NCBI GenBank assembly: GCA_963752475.1
Contig: CAVVYR010000006.1
Span: forward strand, 608,001 to 672,000
DNA: 64,000 bases
Direction of reading: 5' to 3'
Origin: an uncultured Chloroflexia bacterium
GTDB lineage: Bacteria; Chloroflexota; Limnocylindria; Limnocylindrales; CSP1-4
A model generated the notes under the pieces. That model did not search any database, was not told the origin of the DNA, and was given only the letters and a program-made list of their open reading frames with translations. Below are positions 3,715 through 26,275 of the stretch, piece after piece. Each line of letters begins with the position of its first letter. The first letter of the stretch is position 1. Position numbers and translations under genes: made by a program.

Positions 3715-3807
3715 GGGCTCGCGGTGACGAAGTCGCCGGGTATCCTGAGTCACGCGTGTCGTGCCCCGCGGGAGTGCTGCCGGGCTGTGCGCCGCAGGAG
3801 GTCAGCG

Positions 3808-4506
3808 ATGACGATGTCCGGAGCGCCCAAGAGCGATGACCCCGGGCTGGAACAGGAGGGCATCTGGGAGGAGCCGCAGGACGCGCGCTCCGACGCATCG
3901 CGTGAACGCGACGCTGATGCGCCGGACACGAGGGCCGGCGGCCTCACCAGCCGGCTGACCTCGACCGCCCTCACACCCGGCCCCGACGGCCTCGTCTACG
4001 CCGACGTGCCCAACCGCATCATCGCGCTGATCATCGACATCATCGTGCTCGTGGTCATCGGCGTCGTCCTGGCCTGGCTCTTCGGTGGCCTCGTGACCGA
4101 GCCGGGAGCCATCGACTCGGCCGGCGGAGAGCTCGACATCGTGGCCTTCATCATCGTGCTCGTGCTGCAGCTGGGCGTGAGCTTTGCCTACTTCGCCGGT
4201 GCCTGGACCCTGCTCGGCACGACGGTCGGCATGCGCTTGCTGGGGATGCGCATCGGCGACGAGGACGACGGCAGTCGCATCAGCTGGCAGCGCTCACTGG
4301 TGCGCTGGCTCCTGCTTGGCATCCCGGCGCTGCTCTCATCGCTGGCGGTCTACGTGCCCAACTTCGTGGGTCTGATCCTGTGGGCGCTGGGTGTGGCCTG
4401 GCTCGTCTTGCTGCTCTACACCATGGCTCAGAGTCCGACCAAGCAAGGCCTGCACGACCGCTACGCCCACACGATCCTGATCAAGGCTCGGCGTCGCGCA
4501 CTCTAG
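3808..4506 (+). CDS. RDD family membrane protein
   Basis: RIIALIID, TVGMRLLGMRI and KQGLHDRYAHT motifs; AGGAGG RBS before ATG 3808. Confidence 0.85.
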   Translation: MTMSGAPKSDDPGLEQEGIWEEPQDARSDASRERDADAPDTRAGGLTSRLTSTALTPGPDGLVYADVPNRIIALIIDIIVLVVIGVVLAWLFGGLVTEPGAIDSAGGELDIVAFIIVLVLQLGVSFAYFAGAWTLLGTTVGMRLLGMRIGDEDDGSRISWQRSLVRWLLLGIPALLSSLAVYVPNFVGLILWALGVAWLVLLLYTMAQSPTKQGLHDRYAHTILIKARRRAL

Positions 4507-4602
4507 CTTCGCCCAAGGCTGGTTCTCCACGGTCTATCCACACTGAGCGCAGATCGGTGGATATCGCCGTTCGCGAAACCCGTGACTTCGTGGACAAGTC
4601 GA

Positions 4603-4632
4603 TTGACCTTGGTGGGGCCTGCTCGGCATAGT
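4603..4632 (+). promoter_or_regulatory. Putative sigma70 promoter
   Basis: TTGACC-N18-CATAGT; predicted start site near 4639-4640. Confidence 0.55.
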
Positions 4633-4639
4633 AGGTCTT

Positions 4640-4796
4640 GCCCGGAGGGGCCAGACACGGGGCCAGGGACGCGGCGATCACATCAACGCGAACCGGCCAG
4701 GTCAGGACAGCTGAGATCGCATCAAGGCCGTCCGGCATCCGAAGGTCGCTGCGATCACATCAAGGCGGCATGAGGAACGTGAAGGTCGCTCCGGGC
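4640..4796 (+). ncRNA. Candidate structured RNA or leader with three internal repeats
   Basis: Closing stem GCCCGGAG (4640-4647)/CTCCGGGC (4789-4796); GATCRCATCAA at 4676, 4715 and 4753; GAAGGTCGCT at 4741 and 4781. Confidence 0.5.
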
Positions 4797-4854
4797 GCTT
4801 CCATGTGTCCGACGCGGTCTACCCTTGTGCGACCAGCAGCAGGAGCCGACCGCG

Positions 4855-5700
4855 ATGCCCGACCAGATCGTCCCCTTCAGCCAGAGACTCGACGAGCTGG
4901 AGGCGCATGTCCGCCAAGCCTCACCGCTGGTCCCGTCGCTGGGCATGGTCCTCGGCTCGGGACTGGGCGGACTGGCCGATGAGATCATGGACGCGGTCGA
5001 GATCCCCTTCGAGGAGATGCCAGGGTGGCCGGCGCCGTCCGTCGCAGGCCATAGCGGTCGCCTCATCCTCGGCTCCCTTCGCGGCCTGCCCGTAGCCTGC
5101 CTGCGCGGGCGCCTGCATATGTATGAGGGCCTATCCGAGCGGCTGGTCGTGGAGCCGGCGCTGCTCATGGGCCGCCTGGGAGCGCCCATCCTGTTGCTGA
5201 CCAACGCCTCGGGTGGCGTGAACCCGGCCTTCGGTGCCGGCACACTCATGGTCATGCGCGACCACATCAACCTCACCGGTCGAAACCCGCTGATGGGGCC
5301 CAACGACGACGCACTCGGCCCGCGCTTCCCCGACATGTCCGCGGTATGGGATGCCGAGTTGCGCGATCGTCTCCACGCTGCCGGCAGGGCAACGGACGTG
5401 GCCCTGGCCGAAGGCGTCTACCTCGGGCTCACCGGCCCCACCTACGAAACGCCTTCCGAGGTCCGCATGGTCCGAGGTCTGGGAGCCGATGCTGTGGGCA
5501 TGTCGACGGTGATGGAGGCGATGGCCGCGAATTGGGCCGGGATCCGCGTATGCGGTGTCTCACTCGTGACCAACCCCGGCGCCGGCCTCTCACCTACGCC
5601 GCTCACGCATGCGGAGGTCGTGGAGGCAGCCGATGAGGCGGGGCCGCGTCTGGCGCGCGTCATCGGGCGCTTCGCGGAGGACCTGCGCGACGCCCGCTGA
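4855..5700 (+). CDS. punA: Purine-nucleoside phosphorylase
   Basis: VLGSGLG, GRLHMYEG, GPTYETPSE and GADAVGMST motifs; AGGAG RBS. Confidence 0.95.
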   Translation: MPDQIVPFSQRLDELEAHVRQASPLVPSLGMVLGSGLGGLADEIMDAVEIPFEEMPGWPAPSVAGHSGRLILGSLRGLPVACLRGRLHMYEGLSERLVVEPALLMGRLGAPILLLTNASGGVNPAFGAGTLMVMRDHINLTGRNPLMGPNDDALGPRFPDMSAVWDAELRDRLHAAGRATDVALAEGVYLGLTGPTYETPSEVRMVRGLGADAVGMSTVMEAMAANWAGIRVCGVSLVTNPGAGLSPTPLTHAEVVEAADEAGPRLARVIGRFAEDLRDAR

Positions 5701-24721: not shown

Positions 24722-25831
24722 ATGGTCACGACTGAGACGATTCGCAGCGCACCCAAGGTGCTGCTGCACGATCATCTCGACGGCGGGCTGCGTCCAGCGT
24801 CCGTCATCGAGCTGGCCCACGAGACCGGCTACACCGGTCTCCCCACCGAGGACCCTGAGGAGCTCAGGGTCTGGTTCCGCTCAGGCGCGGACCGTGGTTC
24901 GCTGGAGCTCTATCTGGAGGGTTTCACCCACACCGTGGGCGTGATGCAGACGCCCGACACGATCGCTCGTGTGGCGTCGGAGTGTGCCCAGGACCTGGCC
25001 GCGGACGGCATCGTCTATGCCGAGGTCCGCTACGCGCCCGAGCTCTCCACCCAGGGTGGCCTGACCCTCGACGAGGTCATGAAGGCCTGGCTATCCGGCT
25101 TCGAGGGCGGCATGCGAGAGGCCGAAGCCGCTGGCAACCCGATCGTCATCCGGGCCATCGTCACGGCCATGCGTCAGTTCGCGCGCTCGGTGGAGATCGC
25201 CGAGCTCTCGGTCCGCTTCCGCGATCAGGGCGTGGTCGGCTTCGACATCGCCGGGCCCGAGGATGGCTTCCCGCCCAGTCGACACCTGGATGCCTTCCAG
25301 CTCATCCACCGCGAGAACTTCCACATCACCATCCACGCCGGCGAGGCCTTCGGGCTGCCCTCGATCTGGGAGGCGCTGCAGTGGTGTGGCGCCGAGCGCC
25401 TGGGTCACGGGGTGCGCATCGTGGACGACATCACGGTCACGCCTGACGGCGATATCAGCATGGGCCGGCTCGCGCAGTTCGTGCGCGACAACCGCATCCC
25501 GCTCGAGCTGTGCCCGACGTCCAACGTGCACACGGGCGCCGTCGATTCGATCGCGGACCATCCGATCGACCTGCTGCGACGACTGCGCTATCGCGTCACC
25601 GTCAACACCGACAACCGACTCATGAGCGATGTCACGCTGAGCGATGAGTTCGCGGCGCTCAGTGAGGCCTTCGACATCGGTCTTGACGAGATCCAGTGGC
25701 TCTCGACGAACGCGATGAAGTCCTCCTTCCTGGCCTTCGACGAGCGCTTGCGTCTGATCAACGGCGTCATCAAGCCGGGGTACGAGCGATTGAAGGCGGA
25801 TCTGCAGGCTCGCTCACCGCGCCTGGTCTAG
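24722..25831 (+). CDS. add: Adenosine deaminase
   Basis: [27 protein letters not shown] and NTDN motifs. Confidence 0.95.
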
Positions 25832-25977
25832 GCCGCGAGGTCCAGTACGACGGGCTCGTCTGCCCAATCGATGCTGGTGCCGCAGACAGCACAGCTGAAC
25901 GAAGCTTCTGGCTCCTCCGGCAGCGGGAAGGGCAGGTGGGCCGTTTCCTCGCACCAGGGGCAATCGACGACGACCAT
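25828..25977 (-). CDS. 49-aa zinc-ribbon protein
   Basis: CPWC..CAVC; GGAGG RBS; ends VVLDLAA. Confidence 0.7.
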
Positions 25978-26226
25978 CCTCGTGTCCTCCGTGGTGGGTA
26001 GCTGCCGCCGACAGTGGAGGACCGCTGTGCCAACTAGCGTGGCACGATGTGCGCCCAGACACGAAGTAGCCCGGCGAGACCACCTCCGCGGCACCCAAGT
26101 GACTGGCGGACCAGCCTCTCCGGTTCCGTTTCGATGACCCCTCCGGGCTGCTATCTACGATAGGGACGCAGTCGGGGCACCACAAGCGGCTTGTCCACGA
26201 ACTCGGAAGATTCCCTCGCGGCTCTT

Positions 26227-26275
26227 CCACGATCGATCCACATCGTTCGTCCACGATCGATCGACATCAGTTCGT
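26227..26275. repeat. Imperfect tandem direct repeat (24 and 25 bp)
   Basis: ccacgatcgatccacatcgttcgt followed by ccacgatcgatcgacatcagttcgt. Confidence 0.75.

Follow-up and report, generated by a model that had tools for sequence, protein, structure and literature searches.

A clamp-ended, structured small RNA family of the class Limnocylindria with a DnaA-box-like site at its promoters

Within a 64,000-nucleotide (nt) stretch of DNA from an uncultured Chloroflexota bacterium of the class Limnocylindria (GenBank assembly GCA_963752475.1, contig CAVVYR010000006.1, positions 608,001 to 672,000 of the forward strand), hereafter the window, positions 4640-4796 of the + strand are the gene of an expressed, stable and structured small RNA (sRNA), which lies upstream of punA and belongs to an uncatalogued family found only in this class. 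It is classed with the structured regulatory sRNAs that repeat a hairpin motif, the unusual twist being a DnaA-type box found at the promoters family-wide. Limnocylindria are abundant, uncultured bacteria of soil, sediment and freshwater, and the literature search found no description of a riboswitch or other regulatory RNA from them. As to function, the favoured account, held tentatively and at somewhat less than even confidence, is that of a trans-acting RNA presenting its hairpin tips to a protein, any read-through into punA being secondary. An earlier interpretation of the letters alone, hereafter the sequence-only reading, had proposed a promoter-driven RNA at this place; membership in a large family and the DnaA-box-like sites are additions to it.

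The gene, about 157 nt long and made of a clamp helix and three hairpin modules, is delimited by its fold and by RNA contigs and has no counterpart in Rfam. On the + strand it is preceded by TTGACC (4603-4608), an 18-nt spacer and CATAGT (4627-4632), i.e., a promoter spanning 4603-4632 that the sequence-only reading had picked out and that stands as the sole sigma-70-like site returned by a consensus scan of 4400-4950 (one site, vs. 0.1 expected from shuffles); it is kept across the loci of the same genus. Equally well founded were the three copies of GATCRCATCAA reported there, which start at 4676, 4715 and 4753 with a spacing of 38-39 base pairs (bp), each being followed by AGGTC, while GAAGGTCGCT is present twice, at 4741-4750 and 4781-4790. 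The exact 11-mer occurs eight times in the 4.25-Mb genome when both strands are counted, three of these copies being those of the RNA gene before punA.

Folding of 4638-4800 on the + strand gives a minimum free energy (MFE) of -78.7 kcal/mol (z = -4.84), a stability equalled by 0/200 dinucleotide shuffles, whereas the - strand of the same segment gives z = -1.11 and is equalled by 30/200 shuffles, in agreement with the + strand RNA of about 157 nt first proposed. The MFE and centroid structures are concordant and comprise the clamp, a 4-bp GGCC/GGUC step, a 4-bp CACG/CGUG helix and three hairpins set on a junction. The 8-bp closing stem initially described, in which GCCCGGAG (4640-4647) pairs with CTCCGGGC (4789-4796), is present and extends to a clamp helix, P1, of 13 positions, where the 5' strand GCCCGGAGGGGCC (4640-4652, +) pairs with the 3' strand GGUCGCUCCGGGC (4784-4796, +) with one G-G mismatch. 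Inside the clamp, the helix P2 pairs CACG (4656-4659, +) with CGTG (4777-4780) in both structures and closes the multi-branch junction; it is invariant within the genus, hence there is no covariation signal to read there. The modules, all on the + strand, are (i) module 1 (4661-4698), with a stem CGCG/CGCG (4670-4673 with 4687-4690) and a loop GCGAUCACAUCAA (4674-4686), (ii) module 2 (4701-4736), with a stem GCU/GGC and a loop GAGAUCGCAUCAA (4713-4725), and (iii) module 3 (4738-4776), with a stem GUCGCU/GGCGGC (4745-4750 with 4764-4769) and again the loop GCGAUCACAUCAA (4751-4763). The 5' stem of module 3 repeats GAAGGUCGCU of the 3' scaffold, a repetition which, judged from the letters, would be the trace of an internal duplication. 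The hairpins previously drawn, where GCGATC pairs with GGTCGC and ACAUCAA is displayed, had to be replaced; according to both the MFE fold and the covariation count, the module stems flank a 13-nt motif loop, GMGAUYRCAUCAA, and GAUC sits within it. For the tip, the prediction is a Y-R-C triloop on a 3-bp mini-helix GAU/AUC, below which G-M and A-A face each other in a 2x2 internal loop.

Among 40 relatives searched by BLAST, 21 of the 24 genomes of the same genus returned the element, directly upstream of punA, whereas the 16 from a sister family, whose genomes are 1 Mb in size, returned none. Within the genus, the clamp is constant while the number of modules varies, with three in 3 genomes (G000, G013 and G005), two in 7 and one in 12. 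A pattern scan with one genome per species returned at least 119 stretches; among the best 80 of 119, about 66 carry the full element, and the titles of the full-element loci listed refer to Chloroflexota, Candidatus Limnocylindria or Limnocylindrales, the remaining listed loci being chance matches in other phyla that lack the 3' clamp strand. In a gapless alignment (A2) of 98 distinct 31-nt modules, seven positions on each side of the loop have 72.6% of their cells paired, vs. 54.8% in shuffled alignments, a level that 0/500 shuffles reach, with a covariation score of 0.45 vs. 0.18; sliding the partner by 1-3 columns as a control lowers the pairing to 27-42%. Pairs of U with G are frequent in these stems, e.g., 19 at the closing pair, and would read A-C on the opposite strand. 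Over 103 modules, 9 of the 13 positions of the loop consensus GMGAUYRCAUCAA are at least 90% conserved, the other four taking two to three letters, and CAUCAA is the most constant part. For the clamp, 98.7% of the cells are paired across 83 family members and both sides vary in 8 of 12 pairs, one pair reading GC in 37, AU in 30 and GU in 16; these members were aligned to a covariance model, so that the alignment is fitted to the model, and the clamp columns are nearly gap-free. The conservation and covariation of stems that had been asked of relatives are found in both the modules and the clamp.

The RNA is also represented in Logan contigs from three salt-marsh metatranscriptome runs belonging to three studies. 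Over the gene, the contigs of the three runs are confined to 4647-4795, at a word depth of 42-389, with loose ends at 4647, 4648 and 4650 on the 5' side and at 4795, 4770 and 4728 on the 3' side; in one run they stop at 4795, in the 3' strand of the clamp, and go on with letters that, as at the other loose ends, presumably are Illumina adapter. In a dUTP library, a + strand RNA would give the orientation that they have. None of the library contigs lies over 4300-4632, and punA is covered at a depth of 2-9 only, by separate contigs, none of which bridges 4795 to 4801 (run X2 covers only 4801-4977 and 5245-5279, at a depth of 2-5). Contigs prove neither RNA ends, strand nor abundance and their uncovered parts prove nothing; read accordingly, they hint, weakly but consistently, at a discrete species of about 150-157 nt, which fits the species of about 160 nt that had been anticipated. 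In run X4, contigs over 4698-4768 lead from 4698 to 4747 through different letters and have loose ends resembling a related module; they probably represent variants, expressed by co-occurring strains, that differ in module number.

These data bear on a DNA-level explanation, likewise put forward in the sequence-only reading, according to which GATCRCATCAA would represent phased transcription-factor or methylation sites acting on punA with no functional RNA involved. The 38-39-bp spacing, the GATC cores and the cluster of boxes for a DNA-binding protein just upstream speak in its favour, but compensatory and G-U changes in the stems make sense only in a + strand RNA, the stability of the fold is strand-asymmetric, and the copies stand downstream of the transcription start and are present in RNA libraries. 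The spacing, moreover, is lost in relatives with one or two copies. This explanation retains next to no probability.

Beyond the genus, a covariance model (R1) built from 40 one-module relatives matched 100 of 151 Limnocylindria genomes, with 1-5 matches each; this tally includes the unpublished genomes G123, G132, G147 and G158, without which it is 96/147. By family, the matches are found in 42/44 genomes of f1, 50/50 of f4, 7/49 of f3, 0/6 of f2 and 0/1 of f5, and across the phylum R1 matched f1 and f4 only, with 0/136 genomes of other families. The members share a clamp pairing GCCCGRAGGGGC with GGUYSCUYCGGGC, a terminal helix that the RNA of the window also possesses, followed by a U-rich tail. 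In the window, this tail is GCUUCCAUGUGUCCG (4797-4811, +), the GUGUCCG of which is able to pair with CGGGCGC in the 3' clamp strand, and the 10 nt that follow the clamp (GCUUCCAUGU, 4797-4806) contain four U; family-wide, there are 4.7 T on average in those 10 nt and at least four in 122/137 members, despite a genomic G+C content of 68% here and of about 68% in the genomes of the family. As anticipated, no known RNA family accounts for the element, the only match of Rfam 15 over 4300-5100 (E up to 10) being a chance one to a miRNA at 4828-4883 (-), and eight paralogue loci (E up to 0.1) returned only an unrelated TPP riboswitch and a tRNA. Identity with the signal recognition particle (SRP) RNA was rejected, since the genome has its own SRP RNA at C7:116515-116614 (70.2 bits), and the 6S RNA model gave no match in the genome, which is a weak test as this model finds 6S RNA in just 5 of 14 control genomes.

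In most classes of the family, the tip reads G-M-GAU-NRC-AUC-A-A. Other classes carry GGUG-CUUG-CAUC, GGUG-UUUA-CAUC, GGUA-CUUG-UAUU, GUUG-UUUA-CAGU or GAUG-GCGA-CAUC, i.e., a helix and a tetraloop, and a rod with an apical helix of 3-5 bp (3 bp in L233 and L238) is the fold obtained for 19 of 20 such sequences. Because these classes have alternative apical helices, the mini-helix GAU/AUC has covarying counterparts, and on the folding model a small structured tip describes the motif better than a linear seed does. This matters for the possibility that the RNA is a base-pairing sibling sRNA, the 13-nt loops of which would serve as redundant seeds for UUGAUGYRAUC-like sites in mRNAs, e.g., near AUG starts. 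A highly conserved and partly single-stranded loop, a multi-copy family with stand-alone genes and the complementarity of the constant CAUCAA to UUGAUG would all suit such a role. TYGATGYRATY, however, has 44 sites in the genome, three of which are the antisense of the element itself, and none shows by eye the context of a start site, the rest lying within reading frames, with no Shine-Dalgarno (SD) sequence before the ATG and with a stop within 50 codons in about half (again by eye). Nor is the exact 11-mer enriched, its eight copies, three of them in the element, comparing with about four expected by the analysts' own estimate, and the covariation of the mini-helix between classes favours a structured recognition site. 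Base pairing through the loops is accordingly considered unlikely. As a separate observation, one class (L226, L227, L229, L242, L207 and L209) carries CAUCUAGUGAUC on both strands of the rod, and its GUGAUC is the exact complement of GAUCAC in the module loop, which would allow pairing between RNAs of the two classes; no member of this class turned up in the genome of the window.

The promoters of the family bear the second distinctive feature. Read from the sequence, DnaA-box-like sites precede the RNA gene of the window, namely (i) two in reverse orientation at 4523-4542 (-), TTCTCCAC (4523-4530) and CTATCCACA (4534-4542), (ii) a distal one, GGTGGATAT (4556-4564, +), and (iii) a promoter-proximal one, CGTGGACAAG (4589-4598, +), 4 nt upstream of the -35 TTGACC; the locus is one of four places in the genome with at least three such sites within 250 nt. 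Among members chosen by RNA motifs only, the box sGTGGAYAAs stands before the -35 in 127 of 135 distinct ones, at 4 nt in 89, at 5 nt in 32 and at 6 nt in 6. A same-strand box is found upstream in 108/117 members vs. 1/117 in an equal downstream stretch taken as control; 38/117 have a second box near -85 relative to the RNA start and 51/117 a reverse-oriented upstream box. On the opposite strand, the family box matches the DnaA-box 9-mer TTATCCACA at 8 of 9 positions, and passages of two articles give this string together with the term DnaA box (PMC2533591; PMC11317965). Because the box stands at a fixed 4-6 nt from the -35, the promoter is probably controlled by DnaA or by a protein with the same site. 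In 29/127 members, the -35 matches TTGACA at no more than 3 of 6 positions, which fits activator-dependent promoters. Outside the origin of replication (oriC), clusters of DnaA boxes make DnaA a transcription factor, as stated in parts of PMC2533591 and PMC8203912, and the present locus resembles such clusters in having several 9-mers at 8/9 to TTATCCACA, in an intergenic region, beside a promoter and away from dnaA (C8:423286). It differs from them in that the box keeps a fixed register at the -35 across an entire sRNA family, an arrangement of which no description was found in the literature searched.

An oriC at the RNA locus was rejected, since the locus does not adjoin dnaA and no box cluster surrounds that gene. 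Elsewhere in the assembly, the box cluster at C7:180869 lies inside a gene and is due to chance, while an intergenic region (G000:C8:17150-17560, L159) has a 40-nt unit twice, each with TTGTGGACAC, plus two reversed ATGTCCAC boxes; being among the three densest DnaA-box clusters of the assembly, it is a possible origin region.

Taken in order, the favoured mechanism would run as follows. Transcription would start about 7 nt after CATAGT, under the control of DnaA or of a same-site protein bound to the promoter box. The 13-position clamp together with the U-rich tail would most likely end most transcripts and protect the RNA, some polymerases reading through into punA as a side effect of the position of the gene in this genus. 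The three hairpins would stand on the clamp, each offering the same structured tip to a factor acting in trans that would recognise it. The RNA would bind or titrate this factor, most likely an RNA-binding protein, with a valency set by the module number, i.e., one, two or three depending on the species. A trans role fits best because the RNA is clamped and stable, its promoter is activator-like, its identical tips vary in number and it has stand-alone copies.

Several findings weigh against this account. The limits of the contigs regarding ends, strand and level weaken the evidence for expression. A simple scan of 4400-4950 for intrinsic terminators (short G+C-rich hairpin, 3-8-nt loop, T-run) found none, and the clamp, which encloses the entire RNA and has a tail merely U-rich, is unlike a canonical one. 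Most members have a single module, which rules out multivalent titration as the general mode. As for the box, what links it to DnaA is the 8/9 consensus match, and no DnaA-box-like site was found around the organism's own dnaA (C8 420-427 kb). Among the candidate partners checked, namely Ro60/TROVE and NYN, none could be retained. Ro60/TROVE (PF05731) was found in 0 of 151 genomes of the class, while the controls in Deinococcus and Bacteroides responded. The NYN nuclease was rejected, as it occurs in 143/151 genomes (a tally including the unpublished genomes G103, G127, G141, G147 and G158), among which 6/6 of f2 and 45/49 of f3 that are mostly devoid of the RNA, i.e., with no co-occurrence. 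Finally, linkage to punA is tight. The gene (4841-5700, +; SD AGGAG at 4841-4845, ATG at 4855, stop at 5700) encodes a product matching the purine-nucleoside phosphorylase family NF006054 of NCBIfam at 325.7 bits (cut-off 218) as well as PF01048. When the next open reading frame (ORF) is taken as the longest one starting within 350 nt, it is punA-like in 62 of 88 parsed elements, and among 21 loci of sister genera a punA-like frame lies 170-200 nt downstream in all 19 loci with the element (including L173, L174, L176 and L191). In several species of the genus with a short spacer, the 3' clamp strand can moreover pair, by eye, with the punA SD sequence. Such linkage argues for a cis role or, at least, for co-transcription.

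In a cis version, the element would be a leader or attenuator of punA where clamp and U-rich tail form a factor-dependent terminator, or where the clamp masks the punA ribosome-binding site; a ligand or protein at the tips would decide between the clamp and an alternative pairing, the short RNA being a terminated by-product. Besides the position directly before punA in the genus and its maintenance in sister genera, this is consistent with the pairing just mentioned, where the 3' clamp strand CUCCGGGC is complementary, by eye, to the downstream GYCCGGAG(G), SD sequence included, in G016-G020. Other members also stand 26-70 nt upstream of co-directional genes, i.e., those of an F420H2-dependent quinone reductase, a luciferase-like oxidoreductase and a 299-aa membrane protein (6 loci), and high RNA cover on the element vs. 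low cover on punA fits attenuation as well.

Against a cis role, the alternative 3' hairpin was rejected as a family-wide expression platform, for it does not exceed composition-matched shuffles (5.74 vs. 5.43 bp; at least 6 bp in 51% vs. 42%). Nor are the neighbours always co-directional, which a riboswitch would require. In another lineage, a two-module variant of 146-148 nt stands after moaA and faces a cupin gene that converges on it; Pfam confirms this gene in L052 and L100, two loci of a 17-locus cluster sharing one antisense frame of that gene. In family f4, 5 of 10 checked copies from 7 genomes face convergent Pfam-matched genes (UPRTase twice, MsrA, AAA_33 kinase and Lhr), and two others (L206 and L211) face convergent ORFs with no Pfam match. 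Many members have no co-directional gene, and one copy has a tRNA gene as its next neighbour, 19 nt further on. Within one genus and before the same gene, the module number ranges from 1 to 3, and the conserved letters lie in the hairpin tips and the clamp rather than in a junction pocket. A cis role for the element is consequently rather doubtful. The tandem-aptamer leader for purine salvage that the sequence-only reading had offered as an option is disfavoured, given the one to three modules, the convergent cupin gene, the stand-alone copies and a separate element before punA in sister genera. A type III antitoxin (ToxI-like tandem repeats of about 36 nt with an endoribonuclease toxin gene) was rejected too, the downstream gene being that of a purine-nucleoside phosphorylase and most relatives having one module.

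This separate element is a second conserved one, located 40-110 nt after the module RNA in sister genera, between it and punA (L176:1420-1488, -; L183:1623-1691, +; L052:6648-6716, +; plus 31 further distinct sequences). It comprises an outer helix, GCCCGRCGG with CCGUCGGGC, and an inner hairpin, the loop of which, AYCGG, forms a pseudoknot with UCGRU further downstream; over the 34 distinct sequences, the variable pair of AYCGG/UCGRU is C/G in 21, U/A in 10, U/G in 3 and C/A in none. A hairpin sequestering the SD sequence lies between it and punA, which again counts against a cis role of the module RNA, and the second element likewise comes after the RNA in the cupin-convergent loci. No Rfam family matches it, and the genome of the window lacks it. 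It is a candidate riboswitch or a candidate second domain of the RNA, and a better riboswitch candidate than the module RNA.

If the tips do bind a protein, a special case would be mimicry of the 3' end of 16S rRNA, where a helix followed by GAUCAC imitates helix 45 (h45) and its GAUCACCUCC tail and is bound by Era or some other 30S maturation factor reading this tail. According to PMC10582724, Era recognises GAUCA directly after h45, chiefly through two adenines and the guanine, a target that resembles the module loop. The organism's own 16S rRNA ends in ...GCGGCUGGAUCACCUCCUUUCU, the commonest module reads ...CGCUGAGAUCACAUCAA, CUG-GAUCAC-UC being common to both, and two modules (L011 and L018) read GAUCACCUC; in addition, the leader of rsmG/gidB, which encodes a 16S methyltransferase, contains a paralogue. 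On the other hand, the second adenine of GAUCA is G in 39/103 modules and its C is U in 14, other classes of the family carry GAUGAC or GGUGCUUG, and, whereas Era reads single-stranded RNA, the GAU of the tip is paired in the predicted structure. The likeness came from a deliberate search for it, and Era is universal, so phylogenetic profiles are uninformative. Mimicry of 16S rRNA is accordingly regarded as very improbable. A broader construction, with a DnaA-switched regulon of clamp-ended sRNAs in which the punA-adjacent member captures an RNA-binding protein, possibly a 30S-maturation factor reading the 16S GAUCA tail, is speculative and would be given a small chance only.

Among known systems, the titrating RNAs of the Csr/Rsm type would be the closest in logic, short of the GGA loops. 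CsrB/CsrC and RsmX/Y/Z are protein-titrating sRNAs, GGA loops being their defining feature, and like the Limnocylindria RNA they correspond to stand-alone, abundant and multi-copy sRNA genes that have a factor site at a set place upstream and differ in how many motif-bearing hairpins they encode. The latter differs by its 13-nt structured tip GMGAUYRCAUCAA, found in 103 modules instead of A(N)GGA, by having mostly one site and at most three, by the clamping of both ends and by an upstream site that is DnaA-box-like in place of the GacA/UvrY box. The CsrB-like logic formerly suggested would remain the best fit, but "sponge" is too strong a word for the family as a whole, since most relatives have one module and only 3 of 22 same-genus elements have three. 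Y RNAs and YrlA/YrlB similarly hold their 5' and 3' ends in a long conserved helix with variable modules on top; Ro60/Rsr (TROVE domain) is the defining partner of Y RNA, yet Ro60 is missing from all 151 genomes of the class and no tRNA-like module is present. The LhrC sibling sRNAs of Listeria are multi-copy as well, 1-3 loops of an RNA carrying the same motif, and alpha-proteobacterial sRNAs likewise repeat one seed across several loops. In the Limnocylindria RNA, though, the motif is not a C/U-rich anti-SD sequence, the tip is internally paired and the own genome shows no complementary start regions. Guanidine-II/mini-ykkC riboswitches are, again, short tandem hairpins with conserved loops upstream of a gene, from which the present RNA departs by the lack of a Rfam match, by 1-3 hairpins inside one clamp and by stand-alone copies.

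Upstream of the RNA gene, the flank is a gene for an RDD-family membrane protein (3724-4506). BLAST found in the window's genome no copy other than the locus itself, and the paralogues came from the covariance model. In the window, R1 matches (E 0.04) a paralogue at 26041-26150 (-) with the same clamp and box-bearing promoter and a different interior; its boxes are at about 26190-26262, and it lies upstream of a 49-aa CxxC...CxxC zinc-ribbon ORF (25827-25976, -) that converges on a 447-aa ORF. A one-module paralogue with the loop AAGAUGACAUCAC (G000:C4:34948-35053, i.e., L163 1501-1606, +; R1, 54.8 bits) is directly upstream of a membrane-protein ORF, the N-terminus of which resembles that of the 299-aa protein (similarity unaligned); this 299-aa protein has no Pfam family and comes after this RNA class in six other genomes (L044, L055, L061, L081, L101 and L103). 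The leader of rsmG/gidB, about 260 nt long (G000:C8 about 487020-487320, i.e., L158 1420-1820, -), has a 3' domain homologous to the RNA before punA, with which it shares a four-box promoter layout, CGCGAACCGGCC, AUGAGGA, the clamp and the tail, and its loop is a plain ACGACGAC devoid of the motif. In G049 (L201), a family member (1501-1591) is followed after 19 nt by a tRNA gene (1610-1683, +; Rfam tRNA, 62.4 bits), an arrangement that suggests co-transcription with a stable RNA. Two known riboswitches also occur in the scanned loci, i.e., c-di-GMP-II-GAG on contig C31 (L160 851-935, -; 42.4 bits, cut-off 40) and TPP on contig C4 (L163 142-247, -; 69.1 bits).

For the Limnocylindria, these results describe an RNA expressed in the field, from a family with up to five matches per genome, and they correct the obvious guess of a purine riboswitch for punA, while the invariant hairpin tip offers a ready bait for its partner. 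If DnaA does drive these genes, the replication cycle would be tied to post-transcriptional control, which has not been described for model bacteria; and if the regulon is as sketched above, replication status would be linked to nucleotide salvage and ribosome supply, and the family would be the first of riboregulators controlled by DnaA.

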